Below are positions 2,081 through 28,923 of a DNA stretch of 64,000 bases, one piece after another. The notes below the pieces were generated by a model. It was not told the DNA's origin, ran no database searches, and was given only the letters and a program-made list of their open reading frames with translations. This DNA comes from Olivibacter ginsenosidimutans (GTDB taxonomy: Bacteria > Bacteroidota > Bacteroidia > Sphingobacteriales > Sphingobacteriaceae), in the NCBI RefSeq assembly GCF_039542865.1, contig NZ_BAABIQ010000002.1, positions 12,989 to 76,988 of the forward strand. Direction: 5' to 3'. Each line of letters begins with the position of its first letter. Position 1 is the first letter of the stretch. The translations under genes and the position numbers were made by a program.

Positions 2081-4336
2081 CTATTGTGTGACATACTCGC
2101 TGAGATATCTTGCTGTGGCGGGAGTTTTATTTTTCAATAGCTGTGCCACGGTTCCTTCAAACACAATTTCACCTCCATATTTTCCGGCTCCGGGCCCCAT
2201 ATCAATAATCCAATCGGCCTGGGCAATGATGTCAAGGTTATGCTCAATCACAATAAGCGTATTGTTTTGATCAACCAGCTGATTCAGAAAATGTAATAAT
2301 TTTTGGATGTCGCTTGGATGTAGGCCAGTGCTGGGTTCATCCAAAATAAGGAGGTGATCGGTACCATTTAATTCTTTTGTTAATTTTAGTCGTTGTCGTT
2401 CCCCGCCGGAAAAAGTATCTAATCGTTGCCCGAGTGTTAGGTATTCTAGTCCCAATTGGATTAATAAGTTGAATGCTTTTGAAAACGAAGCTTCGGAGAA
2501 AAATGAATTGGCTTCAGTTATCGTGAGCTTCATGACATCGGCAATGGTATGCTTGTGATAAGTGTATTCCAAAACCTTCGGGTCATATCCCGAACCACCA
2601 CATACTTCACAGGGCTGTTCGATATCGTCTATGAAAGCAAGATCAATTTTTTCAACTCCCAGTCCTTTGCAGTTTTTGCAGGCTCCCTCACTGTTCCTGC
2701 TAAATAGTTTTTCCGATACTTGATTGGCTTCAGAAAAAAGTTTTCTAACGGTATCTGACAAATGAAGGTATGTTAATACATTGGACCTCGCGCTGCTTAC
2801 AAAGGCAGATTGGTCGATAATCGTAGCTTGAGGATAAAAATTCGGGAGCACCCCGTGGATCAAAGTACTTTTTCCAGAACCTGCTACCCCTGTAACCACT
2901 GTGAATACACCTTTCGGTATGCGTACAGAGACGTTTTTTAAATTATTTTTGGTAGCGTTTTTAATGGTTAAATATCCCTTAGCCAAGCGTGGATTTGTAT
3001 TGAAAGAAGGTCGTTGTGCAAAATAGTGTCCCGTTTTTCCGGATGATTGTTGGAGACCGGCAACCTTACCCTGATAGATGATGTCGCCACCATTTTTACC
3101 CGATGCAGGCCCCATATCTACCACCCAGTCGGCGATCTTGATCAGATCGGGATCATGTTCTACGATCAAGACCGTATTGCCTTTGTCTTTTATCCGATGG
3201 ATAATCGAAGCAATATGCTGTACGTCTTTCGGGTGCAAACCAATACTGGGTTCATCAAAGATATAGAGCAAATCAACTAAACTGCTTCCGAGGTATTTAA
3301 CCATTTTGATCCGTTGCGACTCTCCGCCCGAAAGCGTATCTGTTCGTCTATCCAGCGTTAGATATTGTAAACCGATATCACGAATATGCTGCAATTTTTT
3401 TGATATCTCCTGTAGAATGATAGTATAGGGTTCGGATGGCAGACCGTTGATAAAATACAACAATTCGTCAATAGCTAATGCGGTACAATCTGCGATGTTT
3501 TTTCCATCTATTTTACAAGACAACACCTTGTTGTTTAACCGTTGTCCCTTACATGCAGGACAGGTTTGGGTGGTAACCACTTGTTTAAGTACACTTTTGC
3601 GTGTTTTGTACGTTTTGGCATCTTTTCGTAAAAATGCTTTTTCAATCCGTGGAATCACGCCTTGATATTTTACCGTTTTACCCCAATTTTTATCAGGGTG
3701 TGGGGGTTTATGCTCAGCAGCATAGAGCAAGGTATTCCACTCGTCTTCGGTGTAATCTTTCAGCTTCTTATCGTTATCAAAATATCCGGCATATACATAA
3801 CGTGTCCAACGCCAGCCACCGGGCTGAAAGGTTGGAAACAAAATAGCACCTTCATTCAGTGACTTTTCTTGATCAATAAGCGCGGGGATATTGATGGTCT
3901 GGACAAAACCTAATCCTTCACATTGAGGACACATTCCCTGAGGATTATTAAAGGAAAAGACATTGGAATATCCTACAAAAGGCTTGCCCATTCTGGAAAA
4001 TAACAACCGCAAAGGGGCGTATACATCGGTTGCCGTACCAACAGTAGAGCGCGCATTACCGCCTAACCTTTTTTGGTTGATGATAACTGGAACATTGAGG
4101 TTTTCGATTTGATCTACATCTGCAACGCCGTAGTGCTGCAAGCGATTTCGGATAAAACTGTGCTGCGTTTCGTTTATCTGCCGTTGTGCTTCCGCACCGA
4201 TTGTTTCAAACACCAAAGACGATTTGCCTGAACCAGATACTCCCGTAAAAACGGTAATACTTTTCTTAGGGATTTCTAACGAAATATTTTTAAGGTTGTT
4301 CTGCCGTGCATGAATGATTTTAATGAAAGAAGACAT
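2081..4336 (-). CDS. UvrA-like tandem ABC ATPase, short form (class II UvrA paralog)
   Basis: 751 aa. Two Walker A sites (GVSGSGKSSL and GVAGSGKSTL), two LSGGE signatures, and UvrA-type zinc modules (CPQCEGLG, CPACKGQ, CKNCKGLG, CEVCGGSG). It is about 190 aa shorter than canonical UvrA, consistent with loss of the UvrB-binding region. Confidence 0.85.
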   Translation of the reverse strand: MSSFIKIIHARQNNLKNISLEIPKKSITVFTGVSGSGKSSLVFETIGAEAQRQINETQHSFIRNRLQHYGVADVDQIENLNVPVIINQKRLGGNARSTVGTATDVYAPLRLLFSRMGKPFVGYSNVFSFNNPQGMCPQCEGLGFVQTINIPALIDQEKSLNEGAILFPTFQPGGWRWTRYVYAGYFDNDKKLKDYTEDEWNTLLYAAEHKPPHPDKNWGKTVKYQGVIPRIEKAFLRKDAKTYKTRKSVLKQVVTTQTCPACKGQRLNNKVLSCKIDGKNIADCTALAIDELLYFINGLPSEPYTIILQEISKKLQHIRDIGLQYLTLDRRTDTLSGGESQRIKMVKYLGSSLVDLLYIFDEPSIGLHPKDVQHIASIIHRIKDKGNTVLIVEHDPDLIKIADWVVDMGPASGKNGGDIIYQGKVAGLQQSSGKTGHYFAQRPSFNTNPRLAKGYLTIKNATKNNLKNVSVRIPKGVFTVVTGVAGSGKSTLIHGVLPNFYPQATIIDQSAFVSSARSNVLTYLHLSDTVRKLFSEANQVSEKLFSRNSEGACKNCKGLGVEKIDLAFIDDIEQPCEVCGGSGYDPKVLEYTYHKHTIADVMKLTITEANSFFSEASFSKAFNLLIQLGLEYLTLGQRLDTFSGGERQRLKLTKELNGTDHLLILDEPSTGLHPSDIQKLLHFLNQLVDQNNTLIVIEHNLDIIAQADWIIDMGPGAGKYGGEIVFEGTVAQLLKNKTPATARYLSEYVTQ

Positions 4337-4811: not shown

Positions 4812-5522
4812 CCCTTTTTTTCCTTGTAGCCAATATCCATGCGAAACGATTTTACCTTTACTTTTACCTTTTAGAACTTTACGGAACGTCCGTACCGATT
4901 GGGCATTTCCAGTTAGAATAAAGTTTGCCTGCTGCCATTCGGGCGATTGGACAAGGGGCAATGCGCTGATCCAGTTCTCGTTGCTAAATGAGCCATTTTT
5001 TGAAAATACAGCGTAATTTTTCAATTGTAAAAGATTCGGAATATGGTGGTTCTCTTCGTCCAGTTCTAAATAGAATTGGAAGGAATGCTGGTGCTGCGTC
5101 AGTACGGGTAAGAAGGAACAGACAAGCGCTAAAGAGGTTTCATCACCGAAAATAACGTACTTCTCTACTGATGAATCGTAATAGTTATAGGCTCTCGGCG
5201 GGTTAATATGAACATCATCTCCTACACCCAAACTGTCCATAAAACAGCTTCCGGGAGCATTTCCATGTAGGTGGACAATTAATTCCAACAGGCCGTTGGT
5301 AGTATCAACATAAGAAATGGTATATCTTCGTGCGTCTGTATCACTCACACGAAAATCGATGAAGCTTCCCATGCCAACATGTACATCTTTAAAATTCCCG
5401 CTGAATTGAATCCGTTTGATGGTTTCGGATAGATAATCGACCTTGGTAGTAATCATCGATAACGACTTGGCGGATAAGAGACGATCGAAAACATCAAATA
5501 CCCATTTTGGAGCGCTTGGCAT
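4806..5522 (-). CDS. siderophore-interacting protein (FAD-binding_9 / SIP ferric-reductase family)
   Basis: 238 aa with an N-terminal FAD-binding beta-barrel and a C-terminal NAD-binding-like region of the ViuB/SIP type. ATG at 5520..5522. Its stop overlaps the MarR stop convergently. Confidence 0.7.
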   Translation of the reverse strand: MPSAPKWVFDVFDRLLSAKSLSMITTKVDYLSETIKRIQFSGNFKDVHVGMGSFIDFRVSDTDARRYTISYVDTTNGLLELIVHLHGNAPGSCFMDSLGVGDDVHINPPRAYNYYDSSVEKYVIFGDETSLALVCSFLPVLTQHQHSFQFYLELDEENHHIPNLLQLKNYAVFSKNGSFSNENWISALPLVQSPEWQQANFILTGNAQSVRTFRKVLKGKSKGKIVSHGYWLQGKKGL

Positions 5523-5811
5523 AATCTTTAATTTTTTTCAAAGAAACCAAGAGTAAGCCCTCCAAAAAAGACTGATATAGGGTAAGTATTGGATTAATCG
5601 CGGTTTTTCTGTCGGAAAGATAAAGCGGTCATCCCAACAATTTTGGTAAATAGCCTGGAAAAGTAAGGATAATCGTCGTATCCCAATTGGAAAAAGATAC
5701 CATCTCGCACCTAAATTTATAACATTTCATTTCAATTCTAAGTCTCCAGAAAAAATCTACGAACTTATTCCGCATAAAAATGTTAGCCTAGTAGGTTTAA
5801 AAAAATATAGC

Positions 5812-6042
5812 ATGATAATGAAAAATCAATGTTTAACGAGTAAAATTGGAAGTGCCGCTGTGGGACAGGCCGCAGGTGGTCGGGTAGCGCTCGGAGCGAT
5901 GGTCATAGGAGCCTTGGCTGTTGGAGCAATGGCGATTGGTGCACTCGCAATCGGTGTACTTCGCATAGGGAAAGGAAAAATTGGTAGCTTGCATATTCAT
6001 GAGCTGAAAATCGACAAACTCATTGTAAAAGATCAAAAATAG
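5812..6042 (+). CDS. small glycine-zipper membrane peptide (hypothetical)
   Basis: 76 aa with a repeated GxxxG/AxxxG motif (GALAVGAMAIGALAIGVLRIG) forming one or two predicted TM helices. No other support. Confidence 0.3.
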   Translation: MIMKNQCLTSKIGSAAVGQAAGGRVALGAMVIGALAVGAMAIGALAIGVLRIGKGKIGSLHIHELKIDKLIVKDQK

Positions 6043-6238
6043 CACGACTAATTAATAACGGTGTTTATCCGCCGGAAGGATTACCCTATGAGCGACAGCT
6101 ACACACACTTTTCAAATCGATCATGAAAGGATATGGAGAAAAATAAAAGATGGACGAACTTGTAAAACCCCTTATCAAAGACGTGAATATAGATTTAACA
6201 CCTATTTAATACTGGTTATTTACTTTTGTGTCATTCGT

Positions 6239-6844
6239 ATGGCGCAACAAATAACAGACGAAATCATTGCTCAATTGAGAACCGGCAGCAAGCAGGCTTT
6301 TACACTAGTGTTTAAACAGTATTGGAAAAAACTATATGCCATTGCTTATCGACGTGTAGAAGACGAAGCCGCCGCCGAAGATATTGTACAGGAAATTTTT
6401 ATTGCTTTGTGGGATAAGCATAGTCAATTTACGATCAATAGCGCCAATATTGAATTTTATTTACTTAAAGCCGTAAAGAGCAGGGTGATCAATTACTATG
6501 TTTCGCAGAAAGTAAAAAGGGATATGTTGGCAATGGCTTTAATGCGAATGGAACAGTTTAGTGATCTTGAACAAGTAGGAGCAGGAGCACGTTATCAAGA
6601 GCTAGAAGCTTTAATCGATAAAGAGATTGATACTTTACCACCTACGATGAAGGCAATATTTTTAATGAAAAGTAATAATCACTCAATTGCCAGTATTTCC
6701 AGTACGTTAAACCTAGCCGAACAAACGGTAAAAAACAACCTCACCAAAGCTTCTCATCGCCTCCGGAAGTCACTTTTACAAAAATTTTCAGATGAGAAGC
6801 TGGCCACCATTATTGTCACTGCGTTTTTCTTCACAAAAAGTTAA
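6239..6844 (+). CDS. RNA polymerase ECF-type sigma-70 factor
   Basis: 201 aa with sigma region 2 (YWKKLYAIAYRRVEDEAAAEDIVQEIFIALW) and a C-terminal region-4 HTH. Followed by a FecR gene. A TAnnTTTG-like motif (tacttttg, 6221..6228) lies just upstream. Confidence 0.9.
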   Translation: MAQQITDEIIAQLRTGSKQAFTLVFKQYWKKLYAIAYRRVEDEAAAEDIVQEIFIALWDKHSQFTINSANIEFYLLKAVKSRVINYYVSQKVKRDMLAMALMRMEQFSDLEQVGAGARYQELEALIDKEIDTLPPTMKAIFLMKSNNHSIASISSTLNLAEQTVKNNLTKASHRLRKSLLQKFSDEKLATIIVTAFFFTKS

Positions 6845-6917
6845 CAAAAAAAACATCTGTATTGGAGGTACTTCTGGCCGGTCCGCTTGTATACCAGTAA
6901 AAGTAACATAAGTACAA

Positions 6918-7898
6918 GTGGATAAAGATCAATTTTTACTATTATTAAAAAAATACCAAGAAGATAATTTGAACGAAGAGGAGTGTGAGGTCCTGGAAAA
7001 TTGGTATAATTCTTATGGTTACAGCGAGGACATCAAACCACTGGAAAACCAATATAAAACAAAGTCCATTGAAAACCGCTTGTCTAAAAATATCTCCGGG
7101 CACATACAGCGGAAAAATACAGGCAGAATAAGGCAGGCAAGAAAATGGACAGTTGCAGCAAGCTTGCTATTGGGTTCAATTTTAGCCACTTATTGGTTTT
7201 TCCGTAGCAATATGGAAAGAACTGGTTTTGCTTCTGCAGGAGATAAAAAACCATTATACGACACAGTTTTGACGGCAATCGGAAAAATGAAAAAAATCAT
7301 TCTTCCGGATAGTTCGGAGGTTTGGCTTAATGCCAATAGCCAGATCCATTATGCCCCAACAAATTTCAGAGAAAAAAGAGACGTTTTTTTGGATAAAGGA
7401 GAAGCCTTTTTTGCTGTCGAAGAAAATCCGAAAAGTCCGTTTCAAGTTCATACCATCGATTTGAACACCCAGGTTTTAGGAACGAAGTTTAATGTGAAAG
7501 CTTATCCTGAATTGGATTACGCTACCGTCCACGTGAAAACAGGAAAGGTAAAAGTGACCACTAAACAAGGGGTTTTAATGGATACCATATCTGCAGGTAA
7601 CGGTCTGCGTTATGATCGCCTTAAAAATACCTGGCTCTCTGATAATCGTTTTGCACTACAAGCCGGGGAATGGATAGATGGCCGGATTACGCTTAATGAA
7701 GCGACTTTTGATGAGCTCGCTGCGGTGCTATATAACCGATTTCAGATTCGGTTAATCCGTGCTATGACCTTATCAAAGAATTACCGATATACCATTACTA
7801 TTTTACAGAATAAACCGTTGGAGGAAACGTTGCGGCTCATTTGTGCCGTACATCGCACTAACTACAAACAACATGGAAAAACAGTAACGATTTTTTAA
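6918..7898 (+). CDS. FecR family anti-sigma factor
   Basis: 326 aa with an N-terminal cytoplasmic segment, a single TM (WTVAASLLLGSILATYWFF), and a periplasmic FecR domain. GTG start. Confidence 0.9.
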   Translation: MDKDQFLLLLKKYQEDNLNEEECEVLENWYNSYGYSEDIKPLENQYKTKSIENRLSKNISGHIQRKNTGRIRQARKWTVAASLLLGSILATYWFFRSNMERTGFASAGDKKPLYDTVLTAIGKMKKIILPDSSEVWLNANSQIHYAPTNFREKRDVFLDKGEAFFAVEENPKSPFQVHTIDLNTQVLGTKFNVKAYPELDYATVHVKTGKVKVTTKQGVLMDTISAGNGLRYDRLKNTWLSDNRFALQAGEWIDGRITLNEATFDELAAVLYNRFQIRLIRAMTLSKNYRYTITILQNKPLEETLRLICAVHRTNYKQHGKTVTIF

Positions 7899-8016
7899 AA
7901 AAAACGGCAAGCTGCCCAGGGCTGCCTGCCGGTATCTCCATATAGCCCGTAGTCGCCAAATCACCGAGGCTATATGAATGAACCCGAATAGTTAACAATA
8001 ACGAGTATACAAATAT

Positions 8017-11000
8017 ATGAATTATGATCATAAGCTAAACCAGCTCATTATGAGAACTTTTTTGTTCGTCAGTTTCTTTTTTACCTGCGTCCAGATGCTA
8101 TTAGCCAGCCATTTGAGTGCCCAGGGAATACAAGAAAAAATTAATATTGATTTTAAAAATGAAAATTTAGCCGAGGCCATGGCTAAGTTCGGTAAGCTTA
8201 TTCCGGTACAAATGGCTTACGATGGCACGCTACTACAGCTCTCGAATCATCGCATAAAGGCAAAACATTTTGAAGAAACCGAAGCACAGGAAATATTAAC
8301 TTACCTCTTGTCTAATACTGGGATTACTTATCAAGAAAGTGATGGTAATATTGTGCTGATTAAACGCAATCAGTTGCAACAGTTGAGCAGCATTACTGGT
8401 CAAGTAAAAGATCAGTCTGGCGCACCGCTCCCAGGAGCTAATGTGACGCTCATTGAACTGCAAAAAACCGTGAGTACAGATGAGGAAGGTAATTTTCGAC
8501 TGAGCGTGCCACCAGGGACATATACCCTCGAAGTGAGTTATGTTTCCTATGAATCGCAACGACGAGAATCCATACAAATAACTGAAAATCAGAAATTAAC
8601 AATCAATTTTGATCTTAAAGAGGCAAAGGGCGTGCTTAGCGAGGTGGTGGTCATTGGTTATGGAGAGATGAAGAAAAGTGATTTATCGGCGGCTGTATCC
8701 ACCGTTCCAGATCTAGAGCAAGCCACTAAAAGACCCTTGGTAGATGTTCCCAGCATGATCCAGGGAAAAGTGCCTGGTGTAACGGTGGTTAGTAATGGAG
8801 GGCATCCCAATAGCACTCCTAAAATTACGATTCGAGGTACCGGATCCATTCAGAACGAAGATCCTTTAGTCGTTGTAGATGGTGTACCCAATGCGCCCTA
8901 TAACCCAGCAGATGTAGAATCGATCACGGTACTAAAAGATGCTGCTTCTGCTGCAATTTATGGTGCATTTGCCGGAGCATCGGGAGTTATACTCATCACC
9001 ACGAAACAGGCCAAAATCGGTGCACCGAGTATTCAGTATGATGCCTTTGCAGGCGCAAAAAGCGCTTGGCGATTACCACAATCGCTTACCGGCGAGCAGG
9101 AAGCCCAAGTGTACAACCAAGCTTATGCAACGGCAGGTCTAAATCTGCCTGATGGTTGGGATGCAACAAAAAATCCGGATGCGCAGATAACACGCACCGA
9201 TTGGATTAATGAGATTTTTCGTACTGGTTTAACTCACCGTCATACCCTAACAGTGAATGCGGGAACGGATAAATTTGCGACTCTCTTGCAAGGACGATAT
9301 GAAAAAAATGAAGGAACCTTATTAAATACCTTCAATGAAAACCTTTCTTTACGCTTTAATGCCCGTTACGATTTTACCGATCATCTGAAATTAAAGCAAG
9401 AGGTTTTTTATAATAACAATAGCAGCCGAGGTACCGAAACAGCCAGTGGGTACAGCGGTGCTATTATTTCGGCTATTTATATGCCACGATCAGCAAGCGT
9501 GTATTATCCTGACGGTAGCTTTGGGGGTGTAGGGCCAAAGGATTCGGAGTACCTTGGTATTTTTGGGGATGCCATTAATCCAGTAGCAACCTTATTACGA
9601 AATGATTCCTATAATAAAACAAATGATATTCAATCTATATCCGAATTATCATATTCCGATATTATCCCGGGATTGGATGTATTGTCTCGATTCTCGTACT
9701 ATCAATCAAATCTGTTTTACAAGAATTTCGATCCTCGTCGTACGGAACCGGGTAAACCCAACGATCAGAATATCCTGAGTTACGATGCCGATAAAAATTA
9801 CCATTGGATCTGGGAAAATACGCTGAACTATACCCGCTCTTTCGGAAAACACAATATAGGCGCCATGTTATCCACTACTGCTCAGACAGCTGTATTAAGG
9901 GGATTTGGTATTGCAGCCCGTGATTTTGAACGGGAAGATTATTGGGCACAATTTTTTATCAATGCCTCCGATTTTGATACCGATAGGCCTACGGATAGCC
10001 AAAGTGAAGACCGTAACGTGTCTTATGTCGGTCGTTTATCGTATAGCTGGGCCGATCGTTATTTTGTCACGGCAAGTTATCGAAAAGATATTGCCGGACG
10101 TTTGCCAAAAGGTTACCAAGGGAAGGGGCTCCCAGGTTTAACAGCGGCTTGGAAACTAAGTTCAGAACCATTTTTTAAGGTGTCTGGTATCGATTTATTG
10201 AAATTCCGGGCAAGCTGGGGACGCATCGGAAACTTGTCGACCATACCGATTAATTATGGTTACCAAACCTTGAGCAGTAACACCACGTACCAAATTGGGG
10301 ATGGAGCGCCTATTACCACCGCTTGGTATATTGCTAACCAGTTTAATCCTGCTCTTTCTTGGGAAACTTCCGAACAAATTGACATAGGAATGGACCTGAG
10401 TATACTACAGGAGCGTCTAACCATGACCGCCGACTATTTTAAAAAGAAAACGTATGATCTGATTCAAGATAAAACAACCGATTGGCCAAATACTTTCGGC
10501 TTAGGATCACCTAAAATTAACGAAGGAGAAATTCGCAATGAAGGTTTAGAATTAGCCTTAAACTGGAAAGACAAGATAGGCGAAGTATCGTACAATATTG
10601 GCGGCAATGTGGCCACCTTGAAAAACCGAGTCAGTTATATCTCTGAAGATCCGGATGCATTTTGGACCCACGGAGATGCATGGAGAGGTATTTTAACACC
10701 ATTCCGTTCAAAGGTTGGAGAACCATACTATTCTTATTGGTTGGTACAGACGAATGGATTATTCCAAAGCGATGCGGAAGCTCAATCCTATGTAGGTCCT
10801 GAAGGTACTCCCATACAACCAGATGCAAAAGCCGGCGATTTGAAGTTTGTTGACCAGAATAATGATGGACAGATTAATGATCTCGACCGCGTTTATATGG
10901 GCAATGCTTTTCCTAAATTTACCTATGGTTTTACAGCAAACCTGAACTGGAAAAACTTCGACCTTAGCTTATTTTTACAGGGTGTCGGTGGCGCGAAACT

Positions 11001-11385
11001 GTTCAACGCTTTTAAGCAATCTACCTTGAATGCCGGTGAACAAGGCTATAACCGTTGGGATAAAATCCTAGATGCTTGGTCTGCCTCAAACACCGATTCA
11101 GATATTCCGCGTATCAATGCGAAAGATCCTAACAAAAACTTTTCAACGAACTCAGACTGGTTTTTGGAGAGTGGAAATTACCTCCGTTTAAAAAATGTAA
11201 TGTTGGGTTATACTTTTTTCAAACTTCCGCGAAACATGAAATTACATGTTTACATCACCGGAGAAAATTTACTCACTTTTACCCAATATAGTGGAATGGA
11301 TCCAGAAGTAGGCGGAGTGGGGATGGACGGAGGACAATATCCGGTTTCCAGGTCCTATGCATTGGGTGTTAACTTAACGTTTTAA
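8017..11385 (+). CDS. SusC/RagA family TonB-linked outer membrane protein with N-terminal STN signalling domain
   Basis: 1122 aa with signal peptide, STN domain, carboxypeptidase-regulatory-like domain, plug and beta-barrel. It ends in Phe and is immediately followed by a SusD-like gene. Confidence 0.9.
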   Translation: MNYDHKLNQLIMRTFLFVSFFFTCVQMLLASHLSAQGIQEKINIDFKNENLAEAMAKFGKLIPVQMAYDGTLLQLSNHRIKAKHFEETEAQEILTYLLSNTGITYQESDGNIVLIKRNQLQQLSSITGQVKDQSGAPLPGANVTLIELQKTVSTDEEGNFRLSVPPGTYTLEVSYVSYESQRRESIQITENQKLTINFDLKEAKGVLSEVVVIGYGEMKKSDLSAAVSTVPDLEQATKRPLVDVPSMIQGKVPGVTVVSNGGHPNSTPKITIRGTGSIQNEDPLVVVDGVPNAPYNPADVESITVLKDAASAAIYGAFAGASGVILITTKQAKIGAPSIQYDAFAGAKSAWRLPQSLTGEQEAQVYNQAYATAGLNLPDGWDATKNPDAQITRTDWINEIFRTGLTHRHTLTVNAGTDKFATLLQGRYEKNEGTLLNTFNENLSLRFNARYDFTDHLKLKQEVFYNNNSSRGTETASGYSGAIISAIYMPRSASVYYPDGSFGGVGPKDSEYLGIFGDAINPVATLLRNDSYNKTNDIQSISELSYSDIIPGLDVLSRFSYYQSNLFYKNFDPRRTEPGKPNDQNILSYDADKNYHWIWENTLNYTRSFGKHNIGAMLSTTAQTAVLRGFGIAARDFEREDYWAQFFINASDFDTDRPTDSQSEDRNVSYVGRLSYSWADRYFVTASYRKDIAGRLPKGYQGKGLPGLTAAWKLSSEPFFKVSGIDLLKFRASWGRIGNLSTIPINYGYQTLSSNTTYQIGDGAPITTAWYIANQFNPALSWETSEQIDIGMDLSILQERLTMTADYFKKKTYDLIQDKTTDWPNTFGLGSPKINEGEIRNEGLELALNWKDKIGEVSYNIGGNVATLKNRVSYISEDPDAFWTHGDAWRGILTPFRSKVGEPYYSYWLVQTNGLFQSDAEAQSYVGPEGTPIQPDAKAGDLKFVDQNNDGQINDLDRVYMGNAFPKFTYGFTANLNWKNFDLSLFLQGVGGAKLFNAFKQSTLNAGEQGYNRWDKILDAWSASNTDSDIPRINAKDPNKNFSTNSDWFLESGNYLRLKNVMLGYTFFKLPRNMKLHVYITGENLLTFTQYSGMDPEVGGVGMDGGQYPVSRSYALGVNLTF

Positions 11386-11396
11386 TGATTTGATCC

Positions 11397-12999
11397 ATGA
11401 TAAAGATAATTCAATATAGCAAATATTTCCTGAGCGTGTTTACAACACTAACCCTGTGGTCTTGTTCGAAAGACTGGGTAGATACGAAACCTTACGGTAG
11501 TCCATCTACAGGAACATTTTGGCAAAGTGAAAAAGATATCGAGCAAGCTTTAAATGCCATGTATGTGCCCATGCGGTATGAATCAACTTGGGGGCGCGAC
11601 TTGTTTAGTATGCAAAATGCGAGCGACGACATTATCACCGGAAGGGTGAAGGCAGATTTCGATAATATTAAAAATTTTATTCCTACGGGAAGGGAAGGCT
11701 ATATGTCTGCGGGTTGGAATGATGTATACTGGATGATGAATAAAGCCAACCAAGCTATACAGGGCATACCAACAACAGAGAACGTTAGTGATGAGGTAAA
11801 AAACAAAGCATTGGGAGAAGCTTATTTTATGCGTGCCTTCGCTCATTTTTGGATGGCGTATTTGTGGGGACATAAAGATCAGGGTGTACCATTTGACGGG
11901 CCCGAAAATCCGGAATATGGTAACCGGATTGCGCCACAATTGCCCTCAGTTACCGATAACTATGCTCAAATTATCAGCGATCTCGAAAAAGCGGCTGATT
12001 TGCTACCCCTGTTTGCTACCTATTCGGATGCCCAAAAAGGCAGAGCACATAAGGTGGCAGCATGGGGATATATGGTAAAAACCTACGCGTATTGGGCACA
12101 ATACGATCCTTCTAAATGGGAATTGATCCCTGCTTTAGTTGACCGGATAAGGGATGAGGGTGGTCGAGCCTTGATTACCGGAAAAGGTAGCGGTAAAGAA
12201 AATTTTCGCGCGGTATTTAAAATTGAAAATAATTGGGGTTCGGAATATATATGGTCGGTAACCTCGGGCACCCAAGGTGGTTCGGAATTCCTAGGGGTTG
12301 TATTGGAAAATACAGGTTGGGGTGCTTATAACGGTTGGGGCTATTTTACGCCTACCGAAGAACTGTATGATGCCTTCGAAACGGGTGCCGAGGAGGGGTA
12401 TTACGGTGCTAAATTTTGGCGATAAGTTTACGTTTTTTGGACAGGAACGTGAATATTATTCAACCAATAGCCTTTCCGGTTTTATGATGGGCAAATACCT
12501 GGATCCCTATACGTATGGTTCAAATGGTGAATCAGGATCGAATGATATGATCAATCAAAATGGGGATTATCCTACCACTCGGCTAAACCTGCCCTTAATG
12601 CGTTATGCCGAGATGTTATTGTTTAAGGCAGAGGCATTGCTAATGACGGGTAGAAACAGTGATGCAGCAGAACCTCTGAACGAAATTCGAAATAGGGTAG
12701 GCTTACCCATTATTAGCAATCCAACACTCGCCGATTTAAAACATGAAAGGAGAGTGGAATTAGCCTGTGAATGGACCGATCGAGTGGCTGATTTAAAACG
12801 CTGGGGTGATTTTGACTATTTAAGGATGGCTTTGCATGGACGCGATCATGTGCGTAAAACCGATCCACATTCGGATTATAAGGTTATTGAAGTGTGGCCA
12901 GCGCGTAATTTCGATCCGAATAAACATATGGCTTGGCCAATTAACCCAGATGAGATTGCAAAAAGCAATGGTGTTTATAAACAAACACCTGGCTGGTAA
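11397..12999 (+). pseudogene. SusD/RagB family lipoprotein interrupted by a frameshift in a T4 run (12414..12417); may be a sequencing error rather than a true pseudogene
   Basis: ORF 11397..12425 has a lipoprotein signal (LWSC) and a SusD-like N-terminus. ORF 12298..12999 continues the SusD C-terminus in the +1 frame. Removing one T from aaatttt joins them as ...GAKFGDKFTFFGQ... to give a protein of about 530 aa. Confidence 0.7.
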
Positions 13000-13046
13000 A
13001 CAATAAATAAATAAAACATACCTTAGCACTACCAAATAATAGATTT

Positions 13047-14030
13047 ATGAAAACATTCATTTATGTCATCTCCATTCTAACTGCCATTTTTATGTGTTCT
13101 TCCTGTAGGAAAGAAAATGAATTATTGTCAGCACAAAAGACAACTACGTCAAATGCAAACGTCATGTCTACAGCTGTAACCATTCATATGGAAAATGCGG
13201 CAGATTGGATGTCTTATTTACCGGATACCGTATCAATCAATCAATTGAGCATACCTGGAACACACGATAGTGGGGCGAGACATGAACCTATTGGCGGTAC
13301 CGCAAAGACACAAAACCTGTCGATAGCCGACCAGCTGACAGCAGGGGTTCGTTTTTTAGATATCCGATGCCGTCATTATCAGGGCGCTTTTGTCATCCAT
13401 CACGGTTCGATTTATCAACAGTTAAACTTCGACGATGTATTACTCGCCTGCAAAACATTTTTGCAACAGCATCCTTCGGAGACAATTGTTATGAGTGTAA
13501 AAGAAGAATATAATGCGGAGGGTAATACGAAAACATTTGCCGAGGAGTTTGATCGTTATGTTGAGCAAGATCCGTCATTTTGGTATCTAGAAGCCGGAAT
13601 TCCTATTTTAGGGGAAACTCGAGGTAAAATAGTCTTGTTCAGGCGTTTTTCTGCTCCTGAAGCAAAAGGTATCGATGCCAGTCACGATTGGGCAGACAAA
13701 GCCACTTTTACCATTACTAATCAAAATTACACGCTTAGGATACAAGATCAATATGAAGTGAGCAACAATGACACTAAATTTCAAGCAGTTACTGATTTAT
13801 TTGAGGAAGCCTTGCAAGGCAATCAAGACGACCAAACATTGTTTGTTAATTTTACGAGTGGTTATAGAAATGTATTTTTGGGAATTCCAAATATTCCCGA
13901 TGTGGCCAATGCCATTAACCCGAAGTTATCGGCTTACTTCGATAATGCGATTGCCGGAAGATACGGTATAGTACCCATGGATTTTGTAAATGATGAATTC
14001 GCTTGGAAGATCATACAGAAAAATTTCTAA
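13047..14030 (+). CDS. phosphatidylinositol-specific phospholipase C X-domain protein (PLC-like phosphodiesterase), secreted
   Basis: 327 aa with signal peptide and the LSIPGTHDSGA motif characteristic of bacterial PI-PLC X domains. Confidence 0.8.
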   Translation: MKTFIYVISILTAIFMCSSCRKENELLSAQKTTTSNANVMSTAVTIHMENAADWMSYLPDTVSINQLSIPGTHDSGARHEPIGGTAKTQNLSIADQLTAGVRFLDIRCRHYQGAFVIHHGSIYQQLNFDDVLLACKTFLQQHPSETIVMSVKEEYNAEGNTKTFAEEFDRYVEQDPSFWYLEAGIPILGETRGKIVLFRRFSAPEAKGIDASHDWADKATFTITNQNYTLRIQDQYEVSNNDTKFQAVTDLFEEALQGNQDDQTLFVNFTSGYRNVFLGIPNIPDVANAINPKLSAYFDNAIAGRYGIVPMDFVNDEFAWKIIQKNF

Positions 14031-14031
14031 C

Positions 14032-15930
14032 ATGCGTAAAGTTATTTTATATGGTATTTTCTGGTTTTGTTTTGGGCCTTTACAGGCCCAAAACAAAGCA
14101 GATTTAGGTGAACTGTTTCACGAGTTGATGTTTGGTAACAAGCCATTAAAGACAGGGAACTTGCATGGCCACAGCCATAATGACTATAAGCAAGACATTC
14201 CCTTTCTTTCTGCCTATTATTCAGGAATGGAATCGATTGAAGCAGATGTATTCCTAAAAGATGGCGAACTTTACGTGGCGCATGAAGAAAGTGAGATTAC
14301 AGCCAATCGTACCCTAACTTCGCTGTACTTGGAACCGCTATATGCACGTTTTGTAGCAAATGGCTATCGTCCCTTCGCCGATAGTACCAAAAAATTGCAA
14401 CTGGTTATTGATATTAAAGAAAATTATCAAGTGGTAATACCTGCACTCATCCGGCAATTGAAACCGTATATGGAGATGATCGATGGGAAAAAACAGCAAC
14501 AGGTTGTTCGGATTGTGTTGAGCGGTGACATGCCTAAACCTGATCATTACCAAGATTATCCCGATTTTATTTCCTTTGATGGAAGACCGGGCGTTTTCTA
14601 TCGGCCTGATCAACTAAAACGGATAGCCATGATCAGTAATTCGATGGATGCCTATACCCATTGGAATGGCAAAGGCATACTTCCTGAAACGGATAGAAAA
14701 GAGATGGAAGCCGTCGTACAAGCAGCCAAGCAGATGGGTAAACCTTTTCGTTTTTGGGCGACCCCCGATAGCAAGAATACCTGGATTGTACTTGAAAAAT
14801 TGGGAGTAATCTGGATTAATACGGATCATCCCTTATTGCTAAATGAATGGTTAACCCATTTACCTTATAACCGTTTCCGTTTAACGACTCCTTTGTCGAT
14901 TTATCAACCGACGTATGCTTCCGATGGTAAAAATAGGGTGGCTAAAAATGTTATTTTATTGATCGGCGACGGCATGGGGTCAGGGCAGGTAAAGGCCGCC
15001 CTTTCTGTCAACCATGGTCAGCTTAATTTGTCCCAAATGCGTTATATGGGTTTTTCCCGTACCGAATCGGCTAATGCAGGCAACACGGATTCAGGTGCAG
15101 GAGCTTCCGCGATAGCTACGGGACAATCTACCAATAACGAAAGTATTAGCGTAGATACCGCAGGAAAACCTTTACTTCGGCTGACCGATATCTTGGCAAA
15201 AAAAGGAAAGAAAAATGGCTTGCTCAGCACCGGAGATCTAACAGATGCTACCCCTGCAGCTTTTTATGCGGCTAATATCGACCGTTCAGCTTCAGAAGCT
15301 ATCGCACAGGATTTGTTGCAAAGTCCAATTGCCTTTATCGGTGGCACACAACCTGGTTTTTTTCATGACTCGCAGAAAAGAAGAAGCTATTTCCAGCAAC
15401 TGAGGGCGAAAGGATTTAGTGTGCTGGAAGATGTTATGCAAATTAATACGCAGAAGAAAATTGCCTTATTTTTACCTGATTCGGTGACTCGTCCGGTAAA
15501 AGAAGGACGTGGAAACGTGCTACAACGTATGGTCAGTGAAAGTATAGTACGTTTGAAATCGCCAAACGGTTTCTTTTTGATGGCAGAAGGTGCCCAAATT
15601 GATTATGGTGGACATGCCAACGATCTCCCTTATGTAATTACCGAGACGCTCGATTTCGACCAAGCAGTGGGAGAGGCATTGCGTTTTGCAGATCAAGACG
15701 GAAACACGCTAGTAATTGTAACGGCAGATCATGAGACGGGAGGATTATCACTATTGGATGTAGATGAACAACAGGGATATGTAGAAGGAAATTTTTCTAC
15801 TAATGATCATACCAATCTGATGGTTCCGGTATTGGCCTATGGTCCAGGTGCAGAAAAATTTATCGGCATCTATAAAAATACCGCTTTATTCGACAAAATT
15901 TTAACTGCTGTAGGGGTGAAGGATGAATAA
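14032..15930 (+). CDS. fusion protein: PLC-like phosphodiesterase (HxHNDY type) N-terminal domain + alkaline phosphatase C-terminal domain, secreted
   Basis: Signal peptide MRKVILYGIFWFCFGPLQAQ, ATG at 14032. The N-terminal half has LHGHSHNDYKQD...EADVF. The C-terminal half has the alkaline phosphatase active-site region (LLIGDGMG...TDSGAGASAIATG) and metal-site residues (DHETGG). Confidence 0.75.
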   Translation: MRKVILYGIFWFCFGPLQAQNKADLGELFHELMFGNKPLKTGNLHGHSHNDYKQDIPFLSAYYSGMESIEADVFLKDGELYVAHEESEITANRTLTSLYLEPLYARFVANGYRPFADSTKKLQLVIDIKENYQVVIPALIRQLKPYMEMIDGKKQQQVVRIVLSGDMPKPDHYQDYPDFISFDGRPGVFYRPDQLKRIAMISNSMDAYTHWNGKGILPETDRKEMEAVVQAAKQMGKPFRFWATPDSKNTWIVLEKLGVIWINTDHPLLLNEWLTHLPYNRFRLTTPLSIYQPTYASDGKNRVAKNVILLIGDGMGSGQVKAALSVNHGQLNLSQMRYMGFSRTESANAGNTDSGAGASAIATGQSTNNESISVDTAGKPLLRLTDILAKKGKKNGLLSTGDLTDATPAAFYAANIDRSASEAIAQDLLQSPIAFIGGTQPGFFHDSQKRRSYFQQLRAKGFSVLEDVMQINTQKKIALFLPDSVTRPVKEGRGNVLQRMVSESIVRLKSPNGFFLMAEGAQIDYGGHANDLPYVITETLDFDQAVGEALRFADQDGNTLVIVTADHETGGLSLLDVDEQQGYVEGNFSTNDHTNLMVPVLAYGPGAEKFIGIYKNTALFDKILTAVGVKDE

Positions 15931-16020
15931 GTTGATTCAGTCCTACAGCAAAAAAAGTGTATAAAAAAAGTGTATAATAAAGTTCGGTAAATACGATAAC
16001 CCAATTTTACATTTCACTTG

Positions 16021-17031
16021 TTATTTACCTGCTGCTATATCTTTTTTAATCAACTCACGCGTGACTTCCAAAGCGTCTTTTCCCCTAGCAGGAACATCTG
16101 GAATTACACCGGTACCTTCCCAACCTTCTTCGCTGTTCGGACCAACAACCATTTTAACTGGGACAAAAGCGATGAGGTTATTTTTTAACGGAACAAACGA
16201 ACCAGCAATTCCTGCTCCGGCTGTGGTATCGCCAACAATGGTTGCCCGTTCTAATTTTTGCATCGCATAAGCTAAACCTTCAGAGGCAGAGCCCGTTCCA
16301 GGTCCCACTAAAATGTAAACTTTAGCATTTGGATTGCGTTTGCCTGGCACATAGGAATAGGTCCACTCTTGTTCATCCATTTTACGATCTTTATAGAAAC
16401 CGTTTAGGTAAAATTGCTCATTACCGGCATTGTAAAAATAAGAAGCAATGAAACGACCCATATGTCCCGTACCGCCCGGATTATGGCGAATATCCAAAAT
16501 GACGTACTTGCTATAAGCAGCCATATTCATCGCTGCTGCGGCCATTTCGAAAGCGTCCTGATTACCCCAAAAAGGACCAGGAACATCAAGGTAGGCAGTT
16601 GAGGTTTCGGCATCAATCTCCACCTTTTTAAATCCATAATTTTGCTTAATCATCCGCTCCTGTTCTGGATCACGATTACGAACACCACTGCGGCGTTCTT
16701 GTGGTTGAGTTAGTCGCTTATAGGTGTCTTCATCCTTCATTACACGCAAATGCACATCTTTGTGTACCTTTCTTAAATCGTTTGTTAACATCTTGCCTAA
16801 CGAATCTTCCGATAGATGCTTGTATTTTCCTGCTGCTTCATTGGCAAATAAAGCTACCTTATATTTTTCAGAAATTTCAGGAAAGGGATATACCGCTATT
16901 AACTTATTGGCCAAGGTTTGCACCAATTCATGTACATCGGTATCATTTACAAGCTGGGCCCTCAAAGGTAAGTAGCTGGTAAAAACGAACAGGAATATAC
17001 CAAATAAGGTCTTAGAATGGGATAATTTCAT
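16021..17031 (-). CDS. S41 family peptidase (C-terminal processing protease-like)
   Basis: Signal peptide MKLSHSKTLFGIFLFVFTSYLPLRAQ and S41 catalytic region (DIRHNPGGTG ... LVGPGTGSASEGLA). Start moved to the internal ATG at 17029..17031. Confidence 0.8.
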   Translation of the reverse strand: MKLSHSKTLFGIFLFVFTSYLPLRAQLVNDTDVHELVQTLANKLIAVYPFPEISEKYKVALFANEAAGKYKHLSEDSLGKMLTNDLRKVHKDVHLRVMKDEDTYKRLTQPQERRSGVRNRDPEQERMIKQNYGFKKVEIDAETSTAYLDVPGPFWGNQDAFEMAAAAMNMAAYSKYVILDIRHNPGGTGHMGRFIASYFYNAGNEQFYLNGFYKDRKMDEQEWTYSYVPGKRNPNAKVYILVGPGTGSASEGLAYAMQKLERATIVGDTTAGAGIAGSFVPLKNNLIAFVPVKMVVGPNSEEGWEGTGVIPDVPARGKDALEVTRELIKKDIAAGK

Positions 17032-17153
17032 AAAAAAGCAGGTTAAATTTGCAGCGCAAATATAGGAAAAGCGCGTGCTCATTCTGCTTTTGATGAAGGG
17101 TTTAACAATGTATTAACAAGGCAAATGCAGTTGAATCTGTGATAATAAACAAA

Positions 17154-17173
17154 AAAAGCCCCTAAGGGCTTTT
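17154..17173 (-). terminator. rho-independent terminator hairpin (AAAGCCC-CTAA-GGGCTTT) flanked by A and T runs
   Basis: 8-bp stem, 4-nt loop, T-run on the minus strand. It lies just downstream of the minus-strand gene that ends at 17200. Confidence 0.5.
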
Positions 17174-17199
17174 CTGCTACTTTTACGATAGCACACCTG

Positions 17200-17634
17200 T
17201 TATTCAAAGGTGGTTACGACTTGAGTAATCTGGTAATCGTCTTTGCTCTGTGCAACGGTTACATAGTCAACACGCGAGAACGTCGCATATTTCATGGTAA
17301 CTTTGGCAATAGCGACACCCTTATTCTCATCAACAATACTGTAATCGGTTTCGCAGTCTTGACGAATGTTTTTTTGTTTTTTCAAAAAGCCTAATACCTG
17401 TTCTTTACCGAAGGTATGACCTGCTTTTTTAGTGCTATACCGCTGCTGGAATTGTTCGCTGAACAGTTGGTCGAGTCCGGCTACTTGCCCATTCGTTAAC
17501 GCATCTGTATACAAGTCTAAGCTGTGGTTAATAGCAGCCACAGTAGAACGGTTAGCTTTACCTTCGGTGTTGGCAAATGCACTATTGCTTATGAAGATGA
17601 TAGCGGCTGCAATGGAGGTGATGAACGTTTTCAT
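17200..17634 (-). CDS. secreted NTF2-like/SnoaL-like fold protein (hypothetical)
   Basis: 144 aa with signal peptide MKTFITSIAAAIIFISNSAFA. Size and pattern are consistent with the NTF2-like superfamily. Confidence 0.45.
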   Translation of the reverse strand: MKTFITSIAAAIIFISNSAFANTEGKANRSTVAAINHSLDLYTDALTNGQVAGLDQLFSEQFQQRYSTKKAGHTFGKEQVLGFLKKQKNIRQDCETDYSIVDENKGVAIAKVTMKYATFSRVDYVTVAQSKDDYQITQVVTTFE

Positions 17635-24464: not shown

Positions 24465-24989
24465 ATGGAGACAGGCCAGTGGACATTTCAGAAAATAGCG
24501 TCATTTAAACGCCTATTCCAGTTTTATTGGGAAAGAGTGTTTGCACATTGTCTATTTTATTCAAAAGATCTGAATACCTCTAAAGATTTAACACAGAATA
24601 TTTTTCTCGATTTGTGGGAGAGGGGTAAGGAGTTTCCGGATCAAGAAAGTTTGGAAAAATACCTGTCTCGTTGTGCAAAATACCAAGTACTGAATTACTT
24701 TCACTATCAGAACACTACACAAAGATGCCCAATAGAGGATATACCCGAACAACCCGATTATCGGAATAATCCGGAATACCTATTTCAATATAAACAACTC
24801 GCCGAAAATCTTGAACGTTTGATTGATTCGCTACGAGAACCATGCCGTACGGTTTTTTGTATGAGTAGAAAACAAAATCTTAGCCATAAAGCCATCTCTA
24901 ACCAAATGGGCATATCCATTAGTACAGTGGAGTATCACATGAGCAATGCGCTACGTTACCTTCGAAAACAATTAGAAGCCCAACGCTAA
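24465..24989 (+). CDS. RNA polymerase ECF-type sigma-70 factor
   Basis: 174 aa with sigma region 2 (DLTQNIFLDLWERG) and region 4 (SHKAISNQMGISISTVEYHMSNALRYLRKQ). Followed by a FecR gene. Confidence 0.85.
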   Translation: METGQWTFQKIASFKRLFQFYWERVFAHCLFYSKDLNTSKDLTQNIFLDLWERGKEFPDQESLEKYLSRCAKYQVLNYFHYQNTTQRCPIEDIPEQPDYRNNPEYLFQYKQLAENLERLIDSLREPCRTVFCMSRKQNLSHKAISNQMGISISTVEYHMSNALRYLRKQLEAQR

Positions 24990-25155
24990 ACCTTTTTTAT
25001 TTTTTTTTAACTGATTTACAGTGCCTTGATAAAATCTTTTATTTTTTCACTGGGGTAACGCTTCCTTACTGTTAGATACCATAAATGGATGGAAGATTTG
25101 ACCTGCCAATGCATGCCCAGCCATGGCTGCGAAAGGTGGATAAAAACCAGGTGAA

Positions 25156-26100
25156 ATGGATAGAATAGATCCCGAGCTATTAAAAAGATATGCGGATGGA
25201 AGCTGCACAGATGAGGAACGCGCTATCGTGGAGGAGTGGTTAGATAAGGAGGATAATTTATTTGATCAAGAAGCTGAACCATTGCCGCAATACCAGTTGG
25301 ATAAACAGAAACGCGCACTATGGAATAGTTTTGTCGAAAAAGCTTTCCTGTACTCTGCAAGATTAAGATGGTGGAGATGGAGTTTGTATGTCAGTCTATT
25401 GGTATTGACAGGACTGGCCATACAAAGTATTTTCCACACCATACAGATCTATAAAGCTCCTGTAGTAATGCATACTCAAGAAGTACCACCGGGTAAAAAT
25501 TTGAAGCTCGTTTTGCCGGATAGCAGTACTGTTTGGCTTGCTGGGGGAAGCACATTGCGTTACCCGGAAACGTTTGCCGACTCTTTGCGTGAATTAAATT
25601 TGGTAGATGGAGAAATCTATTTACATGTTGTGCAAAAAAAGAACCAACCCTTCCGGCTTATTACCGATGGGGCGGTCATTCAGGTTTTGGGTACGCGTTT
25701 CTATGTAGAAAATCGACAGCATAATACACGTATGCGGATTGCACTTGAAGAGGGCAGCATTCGCTTTAGCCGAGGTACTAGTCGACAACTCCTTCAGCCA
25801 GGCGATCAATTGAGCTATTGGAAAGCAGATAGTACGTTCGAGATGCACCGCATTGCTCCAACTGATATTGCTAGATGGAGCAATGGCTTAATCCAATTTA
25901 ATCATACCGTCTTGCAGGAAGCGCTAGAAAAATTGGAAAACCATTACGGGGTTCGGTTTTTAATAGAGGGAAATCCAAACCTGAAACAACCGATAACAGG
26001 CAAATTTGATAACCTTCCGCTATCCCGTGTACTGCATCTTATGGAAGGCGTAACCAACCTGCACTTTAAGCAAGAGGGAAAAACAATAAAAATCAATTAA
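25156..26100 (+). CDS. FecR family anti-sigma factor
   Basis: 314 aa with a zinc-finger-like N-terminus (DGSCTDEERAIVEEWL), a single TM and a FecR periplasmic domain. Confidence 0.9.
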   Translation: MDRIDPELLKRYADGSCTDEERAIVEEWLDKEDNLFDQEAEPLPQYQLDKQKRALWNSFVEKAFLYSARLRWWRWSLYVSLLVLTGLAIQSIFHTIQIYKAPVVMHTQEVPPGKNLKLVLPDSSTVWLAGGSTLRYPETFADSLRELNLVDGEIYLHVVQKKNQPFRLITDGAVIQVLGTRFYVENRQHNTRMRIALEEGSIRFSRGTSRQLLQPGDQLSYWKADSTFEMHRIAPTDIARWSNGLIQFNHTVLQEALEKLENHYGVRFLIEGNPNLKQPITGKFDNLPLSRVLHLMEGVTNLHFKQEGKTIKIN

Positions 26101-26256
26101 TAAAAAAGAGGTATGACGAAAAAAAATAGGGCTAGCCCTGCCATTGGCTTGTTAAGCAATTCAGTTACATAAAAAGTACCGTCAGCGTGTTCCAGCACGC
26201 CGACGGATAAATACATCAATTTTTCAATTCATGATTTAATTAAGAACTTAAAACTA

Positions 26257-28915: not shown

Positions 28916-28923
28916 TTCAGCCT

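Follow-up and report, generated by a model that had tools for sequence, protein, structure and literature searches.

A predicted GDPD-like barrel fused to an alkaline phosphatase in a PhoA1-type protein from a Pus2-like locus of Olivibacter ginsenosidimutans

Can a single exported protein strip the phosphate from a phosphodiester in two successive steps? The question is raised by a gene in a 64,000-nucleotide stretch of the Olivibacter ginsenosidimutans genome (contig NZ_BAABIQ010000002.1, positions 12,989 to 76,988 of the forward strand), which we refer to as a whole as the window. An earlier reading of the bare sequence, referred to here as the original prediction, had described this gene as encoding a secreted fusion of a PLC-like phosphodiesterase to an alkaline phosphatase. 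Our analysis leads us to propose a periplasmic, two-domain, organophosphate-scavenging enzyme of the type called PhoA1 in Flavobacterium johnsoniae, encoded by the last gene of a Pus2-like SusCD locus (Pus, phosphate utilisation system) and predicted from its sequence to carry a diester through a monoester to inorganic phosphate (Pi). We put the probability of this reading at roughly 0.6. The coordinates of all features are collected in Table 1, and residue numbers refer to the full-length protein.

Both domains are encoded in one open reading frame. It extends from 13990 to 15930 on the forward strand, includes the ATG at 14032, and has its sole stop at its end, with no internal stops. The start codon lies 1 nt after the TAA (14028-14030) of the preceding gene. 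The product is 100% identical to GCM10023231_01710 of O. ginsenosidimutans (632 aa; P0001 in our set), which goes by the UniRef name “Alkaline phosphatase”. The 120 best homologues listed are all 574-658 aa long, with 90-100% of the query aligned. The proposal that a single polypeptide carries both domains is borne out by the uninterrupted frame and by collinear, full-length homologues.

Judged by its sequence, the C-terminal half makes up a complete TAB5-type alkaline phosphatase. It scores 170.9 bits against the Pfam family PF00245, Alk_phosphatase (E 6e-50, aa 304-573; cut-off 24.4), and the TAB5 enzyme 2w5v aligns with aa 301-625 at E 1.6e-68, so that the domain is matched end to end. A Foldseek comparison of the full-length predicted model with the TAB5 structures (2w5v/2iuc) gave a TM score of 0.88 at 38-39% identity. 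The two motifs by which the original prediction had recognized the domain are both in place, the nucleophile region DSGAGASAIATG at aa 353-364 (nt 15088-15123) and the metal site DHETGG at aa 566-571 (nt 15727-15744). The nucleophile D353-S354, within a D-S-x-x-x-A motif, the phosphate-binding R418, and the Zn1, Zn2 and Mg ligands (D313, D405, T407, E519, D524, H528, D566, H567 and H593) all align with residues of the TAB5 and E. coli enzymes. Each of them is invariant in the full-length homologues (36/36). In the alignment, the position of E. coli K328 and TAB5 W260 is a tyrosine (Y525) in the window protein, and that of E. coli D153 and TAB5 H135 is an aspartate (D405). TAB5 alkaline phosphatase and E. 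coli PhoA are both single-domain proteins, whereas the window protein has a second domain.

This second, N-terminal half is a predicted PLC-like/GDPD-like TIM barrel, GDPD standing for glycerophosphodiester phosphodiesterase. The pattern HxHNDY...E...D that had suggested a PLC-like phosphodiesterase is present as described: HGHSHNDY occupies aa 45-52 (nt 14164-14187), and IEADVF at aa 69-74 supplies its E and D (E70 and D72). The full conserved set comprises H47-S-H49-N50-D51-Y52, E70, D72, H84, D127 and K129. In 51 relatives with a mean identity of 37% to the query, no change is seen at H49, N50, D51, E70, D72 or K129, and conservation at H84 and D127 is at least 90%. Among the fusion proteins (n = 36), every one of these eight residues is invariant, as is H47.

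Profile searches link this domain to the GDPDs. The family PF13653 is matched by 48 of the 51 relatives at E 0.01 or better and PF03009 by 20 of them, and the match of the window protein to PF03009 spans nearly the full model. One standalone relative, 52% identical (P0121), passes the cut-offs of both families. When the family profile was searched against PDB sequences, 9 of the 11 weak matches were GDPDs; a single-sequence phmmer search of the PDB sequences with the N-terminal domain gave nothing beyond noise (hemocyanin and ATP synthase b, E >0.3). In fold, the domain is closest to structures of GDPDs, phosphatidylinositol-specific phospholipases C (PI-PLC) or sphingomyelinases D. The profile alignment sets E70-x-D72 and H84 in register with E44-x-D46 and H59 of the T. 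tengcongensis GDPD 2pz0, of which we take E44 and D46 to be calcium ligands and H59 to be the second catalytic histidine. The equivalence of the first histidine, and of D127 and K129, was assigned from the order of the motifs and not from a structural superposition. GDPD profile matches and catalytic residues in register speak against an N-terminal half devoid of phosphodiesterase homology.

The likeness to GDPDs (PF03009; 2pz0, E. coli GlpQ 1ydy and Parabacteroides BDI_0402 3no3) thus consists of the E-x-D metal site and the second catalytic histidine, together with the motif of PF13653, a “W…D…INTD” strand near the C-terminal end of the domain. The first catalytic motif differs, being H-S-H-N-D-Y in the window protein and H-R-G in GDPDs, and its H49-N50 is presumably nearer to the His-Asn of the X-boxes of metal-dependent PI-PLCs. 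This difference fits the filing of the F. johnsoniae protein, which has the same architecture, in a separate CDD subfamily, cd08577. Kinship with the PI-PLC-X protein encoded by the adjoining gene was considered and rejected: hhalign of the N-terminal family against it gave a probability of 1.2%, which rules out a tandem-duplication origin detectable at the sequence level. In Pfam, the fusion does not match the PI-PLC-X family PF00388, and no NCBIfam model matched either the N-terminal domain or the adjoining PI-PLC.

The two domains are preceded by a signal peptide and joined by a conserved linker. By eye, the leader has a basic n-region, a hydrophobic core and a cleavage-like site, L-Q-A, and standalone relatives of the N-terminal domain bear similar leaders. 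A lipobox-like cysteine context was not found in the leader of the fusion, nor is there anything beyond the alkaline phosphatase domain. Together with the predicted periplasmic location of the published orthologue, these features favour export to the periplasm over release from the cell; the word “secreted” in the original prediction holds for the Sec-type signal peptide and probably not for release. The linker positions Y291 and P293 never vary among the 36 aligned full-length homologues, and D298 and G299 reach a conservation of at least 90%. The full-length predicted model has a pTM (predicted template modelling score) of 0.85, and its pLDDT (predicted local confidence) exceeds 90 across the linker, from which we infer that the two domains would form a fixed, rigid body. 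Using this model, Foldseek found no solved structure covering both halves (TMq 0.49 or less). Delimiting the linker also corrects the domain limits, which had been placed at about 300 and 330 residues from the two ends and are now drawn, approximately, as in Table 1.

The original prediction did not recognize the fusion as a described one, yet the same architecture has been published. Fjoh_3249 of F. johnsoniae was introduced as “PhoA1 (putative diesterase activity)”, a predicted periplasmic protein with pf00245 and pf13653 that is encoded in PUSII beside PusCD2 and rises by a log2 fold change of 7.4 upon Pi depletion (Lidbury et al. 2020, PMC8115612). That paper already suggested, for PhoA1, a diesterase combined with a monoesterase. 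PhoA1 restores phosphomonoesterase activity on para-nitrophenyl phosphate (pNPP) in a heterologous host (2022 PNAS, PMC8812569). A recent preprint describes it as a multi-domain phosphatase from the pus2 locus with an “uncharacterised” cd08577 domain, PI-PLCc_GDPD_SF_unchar3 (Connolly et al. 2026, 10.64898/2026.09.03.749221). According to the same preprint, a Δpus1Δpus2 strain does not grow on glycerophosphoinositol (GroPI) or phosphatidylinositol (PtdIns), PusD2 binds GroPI and inositol monophosphate (IP1), and phoA1 rescues the phosphatase-less ΔM5 strain on glycerophosphocholine (GroPC) and glycerophosphoethanolamine (GroPE). A literature search found no further paper on the pairing of a GDPD-like domain with an alkaline phosphatase. 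The published tables differ in one respect: PF13653 is given to fjoh_3187 (PhoA2) in Table 1 of PMC8812569 and to fjoh_3249 (PhoA1) in Table 1 of PMC8115612 and in the 2026 preprint, and the former placement is probably a row swap.

The window protein shares with PhoA1 a signal peptide, a GDPD_2-like domain of the PF13653/cd08577 kind and a PF00245 domain on one chain. The two genes also share their setting, as each has directly upstream of it a SusCD-like pair accompanied by an ECF (extracytoplasmic function) sigma factor and anti-sigma factor. The window locus differs from that of F. johnsoniae in having an extra PF00388 PI-PLC-X gene between the SusD-like gene and the fusion, and in that its SusD-like gene is frameshifted.

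How far does this architecture extend? Scanning one genome per species, we found the fusion as a collinear two-domain match in no fewer than 590 species genomes of Bacteroidota, and kept 80 loci for a comparison of neighbourhoods. In 80/80, both halves fall within a single frame-continuous match. The hosts belong to five orders, Sphingobacteriales, Chitinophagales, Cytophagales, Flavobacteriales and Saprospirales. They include Pedobacter, Mucilaginibacter, Sphingobacterium and Arcticibacter of the Sphingobacteriaceae, as well as Chitinophagaceae; Spirosoma, Dyadobacter, Pontibacter, Echinicola and Rapidithrix of the Cytophagales; Lewinella; and Elizabethkingia, Flagellimonas/Muricauda, Maribacter, Leeuwenhoekiella and Zunongwangia of the Flavobacteriales. 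The fusion is widespread, and it is usually annotated just as “alkaline phosphatase”.

The N-terminal domain also occurs outside this fusion. We searched 1.84 billion cluster representatives exhaustively and obtained 2,405 relatives at E 1e-3 or better, 254 of them at 1e-30 or better. The best 151 relatives divide into 95 standalone proteins of ~250-300 aa, 37 fusions to an alkaline phosphatase and 19 proteins with other partners; one of the standalone members proved to be a complete gene within its contig. Other partners (P0201, P0211, P0226, P0142 and P0258) are a PAP2 acid phosphatase, a calcineurin-like Metallophos domain, a PlcN/AcpA-type phosphoesterase (PF04185) that comes with a beta-propeller, a degenerate GDPD-like domain, and an FHA domain. 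This recurrent pairing with phosphoesterases lends circumstantial support to sequential phosphoester hydrolysis. In a rough neighbour-joining tree of 148 N-terminal domains, standalone and fused forms are interleaved and form no resolved clade, and we read no number of fusion events from it.

Within the window, the fusion is the last of six genes that run in the order ECF sigma factor, FecR-type anti-sigma factor, PusC-like transporter, PusD-like lipoprotein, PI-PLC-X and fusion. Similar neighbours recur in the related loci, where SusC is found in 66/80, SusD in 55/80, and, upstream, FecR in 47/80 and an ECF sigma factor in 43/80. SusD mostly stops 100-200 nt ahead of the fusion in these loci. 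At this point the window has its PI-PLC-X gene, in which the motifs PGTHDSG, LDIRC and VIHHG are intact. The N-terminus of the encoded protein resembles a lipoprotein leader, …IFMCSSC-RKENE (…IFMCSSCRKENE), and one may speculate that this PI-PLC acts at the cell surface. Among 82 related loci, a PI-PLC-X gene directly before the fusion is found only in a metagenome contig (L082); this is also the closest relative, with a 70% identical fusion, exactly the gene order of the window and an intact SusD of 535 aa. A locus of S. spiritivorum (L030) has a PI-PLC-X gene elsewhere within the locus. We conclude that the window gene is a further case of a known and widespread architecture, and that what it adds is a natural variant with operonic coupling to a PI-PLC-X.

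The SusD-like gene of the window is split into two overlapping frames. A tblastn comparison with an intact, 71%-identical homologue places the frame switch between 12380 and 12388, where 7 nt (~12381-12387) stand in place of three codons of the homologue. Either a sequencing error or a recent lesion that inactivates the transporter lid could account for it. A scan for promoters and terminators over 5500-17200 yielded no more sites than shuffled sequence did.

Two further genes occur beside the fusion in one setting or another. A calcineurin-like Metallophos gene directly follows it in L082 (10991-11944) and in nine Pedobacter-type loci (L027, L033, L040, L047, L050, L055, L056, L061 and L062; ~11.9-13.1 kb), and is not found there in the window. 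We take this gene to recall Fjoh_4173, the GIPC-PLC-like enzyme of Pus1 (GIPC, glycosyl inositol phosphorylceramide), in which case a single locus would unite Pus1-like and Pus2-like enzyme sets in some lineages. In the window, the fusion is instead met convergently by a gene for an S41 (CtpA-like) peptidase (16021-17082, reverse strand). The PUS figure for F. johnsoniae also draws a ctpA S41 peptidase (PMC8115612). Since a homologue near the fusion is missing from all 80 related loci, we do not count the peptidase as part of the system, and its link to the fusion is uncertain.

Table 1. Features of the PhoA1-type gene and its locus, in window coordinates
Feature	Position	Strand	Remarks
ECF sigma factor	6239..6844	+	Pfam Sigma70_r2, r4_2
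FecR-type anti-sigma factor	6918..7898	+	Pfam FecR, FecR_C
SusC/RagA TonB-dependent transporter (PusC-like), N-terminal signalling extension	8017..11385	+	TIGR04056 793 bits; Plug, CarboxypepD_reg, weak STN
SusD-like (PusD-like) lipoprotein gene, two overlapping ORFs (open reading frames)	11397..12999	+	Pfam SusD-like_3, SusD_RagB
PI-PLC-X gene, 327 aa	13047..14030	+	PF00388 E 5e-15
Two-domain PhoA1-type enzyme (predicted), whole coding sequence	14032..15930	+	632 aa plus stop; single ORF
Signal peptide MRKVILYGIFWFCFGPLQA, followed by QN	14032..14091	+	Sec/SPI type by inspection of sequence
PLC-like/GDPD-like TIM barrel (predicted), phosphodiesterase-type domain	14164..14880	+	aa 45-283
Inter-domain linker	14881..14940	+	aa 284-303; conserved Y291, P293, D298, G299
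Alkaline phosphatase domain, compact TAB5 type	14941..15915	+	aa 304-628; PF00245, 2w5v, Foldseek

How might such a locus work? The SusCD-like pair would import soluble phosphodiester head groups from phospho(inositol)lipids over the outer membrane. Candidate substrates are GroPI and, at the window locus, possibly inositol 1,2-cyclic phosphate released by the adjoining PI-PLC. The N-terminal barrel would then cut the diester to a phosphomonoester, with H49 and H84 as its histidine pair and a divalent metal coordinated by N50, E70, D72 and D127. The alkaline phosphatase domain, with two zinc ions, one magnesium ion and S354 as its nucleophile, would finally free Pi in the periplasm. A diesterase feeding a monoesterase on one protein is plausible; we infer the diesterase activity of the N-terminal domain, its substrate and the sequential hand-over between the domains.

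Several points weigh against this reading. The window protein itself falls below the Pfam cut-offs, with 24.0-25.1 bits against 27 for PF13653 and 18.3 against 23.6 for PF03009, and its ties to solved GDPDs at the level of sequence are marginal (E 0.013), both of which set it apart from GDPDs proper. A literature search on cd08577 gave a single paper, in which the domain is called uncharacterised, and no biochemical study was found. In F. johnsoniae, Pus2 is merely auxiliary for GroPI, which is probably not the substrate that PusCD2 prefers (10.64898/2026.09.03.749221). The equivalence of the window protein and Fjoh_3249 rests on architecture and context, not on sequence identity, and Fjoh_3249 was absent from the 120 best homologues listed in searches seeded with the window protein and with a Flavobacteriaceae member, and from the clusters looked up. 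Lastly, if the frameshift in the SusD-like gene is real, the transporter may not work in the window strain.

The strongest competing explanation is that the N-terminal domain acts on lipids. As a PI-PLC, lysophospholipase D or sphingomyelinase-D-like enzyme, it would attack phospho(inositol)lipids in intact or lyso form, or sphingolipids of the GIPC type, in place of soluble head-group diesters, and the alkaline phosphatase would then dephosphorylate the phospho-alcohol. The invariant H49-N50, which we take to be like the His-Asn of metal-dependent PI-PLC X-boxes, as against the H-R-G of GDPDs, would suit such an enzyme, and the fold scores are compatible with it. The structures in question, Streptomyces antibioticus PLC1 (3h4x), a Pseudomonas PI-PLC (5fyo) and sphingomyelinase D/phospholipase D toxins (1xx1, 9yd8), are only 11-16% identical to the N-terminal domain of the window protein, and searches of PDB sequences found no sequence-level match to metal-dependent PI-PLC or sphingomyelinase D structures. 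They are also standalone secreted lipases that work at membranes, unlike the fused N-terminal domain. Growth on PtdIns itself requires the pus loci (10.64898/2026.09.03.749221), as a lipase would lead one to expect. However, the window protein seems to be soluble and periplasmic, placed after a transporter of the SusCD type, the SusD-like partner of which (PusD2 in F. johnsoniae) binds the soluble compounds GroPI and IP1. Moreover, the window locus already has a dedicated PI-PLC-X, and no membrane-interaction element was identified in the protein, although the search did not extend to a hydrophobic rim on the model. Altogether we regard a lipid-acting N-terminal domain as unlikely.

Somewhat less probable again is an enzyme in which the alkaline phosphatase half alone is catalytic. 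The N-terminal domain would then be a substrate-binding, chaperone-like or regulatory module, either a pseudo-enzyme or a device for ligand delivery from PusC, and any diesterase activity would stem from the alkaline phosphatase site. All activities shown for PhoA1 are indeed those of a phosphomonoesterase (pNPP; PMC8812569), and the single-domain PafA rescues ΔM5 on GroPC and GroPE as well as PhoA1 does (10.64898/2026.09.03.749221). A more open alkaline phosphatase active site has also been invoked as a route to diester hydrolysis (Lidbury 2020, PMC8115612). What disfavours a non-catalytic N-terminal domain is its catalytic set, H49, N50, D51, E70, D72, H84, D127 and K129, whose invariance in the 36 fusions and near-invariance in the 51 relatives are hard to explain without catalysis. 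In addition, the domain exists as a standalone exported protein and fused to other hydrolases.

That a missed stop or a frameshift had joined a GDPD-like gene to phoA during assembly or annotation, which the frameshift in the neighbouring SusD-like gene makes conceivable as a local error or lesion, can be dismissed as highly improbable, given the absence of internal stops, the same collinear match in at least 590 species genomes, a linker with conserved residues and pLDDT >90, and the uniform length of the 120 best homologues listed.

If the two-domain scavenging enzyme is accepted, what might its N-terminal domain act on? Metal-independent PI-PLC-X enzymes release inositol 1,2-cyclic phosphate, which is itself a diester. 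The N-terminal domain may therefore open this ring or cleave GroPI, and a PI-PLC-X translationally adjacent to a PhoA1-type fusion ties the cd08577 domain more strongly to the chemistry of inositol phosphodiesters. We tentatively suggest, with the balance still tilted against it, that the cd08577-type N-terminal domain could be a dedicated inositol-phosphodiester hydrolase, acting on GroPI and/or inositol 1,2-cyclic phosphate, and that the operon could form a three-step route from PtdIns to Pi with its last two steps on one rigid polypeptide. If true, a domain family with over 2,000 sequence clusters would thereby receive its first biochemical function, which would extend to its standalone forms and to its fusions with phosphoesterases of the PAP2, Metallophos and PlcN types. 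Plant phospho(inositol)lipids are used by a newly recognized route, the PusCD/PhoA1 systems, and the turnover of organic phosphorus by Bacteroidota of the soil and rhizosphere is of agronomic interest. With the architecture itself already published, what remains of interest is the chemistry of the cd08577-type domain and the operonic PI-PLC-X coupling of this lineage.

Some further features lie elsewhere in the window. A second set of ECF sigma factor, FecR and TonB-dependent receptor, followed by a PepSY_TM protein (24465-30063), looks like an uptake system of the iron/siderophore type and is unrelated to the fusion. Two paralogous SPFH/Band-7 proteins with a C-terminal SHOCT domain are encoded 18 kb apart, at 31500-32501 and 49802-50788. 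Two long open reading frames have no Pfam match at E 1e-5 or better, one of 448 aa on the forward strand (30142-31488) and one of 637 aa on the reverse strand (52877-54790). Finally, next to a MarR regulator, the reverse strand at 2081-4336 encodes a UvrA-like double ABC ATPase of 751 aa with a weak UvrA_DNA-bind match; its length falls short of that of canonical UvrA, and the protein may be of the UvrA-paralogue type.

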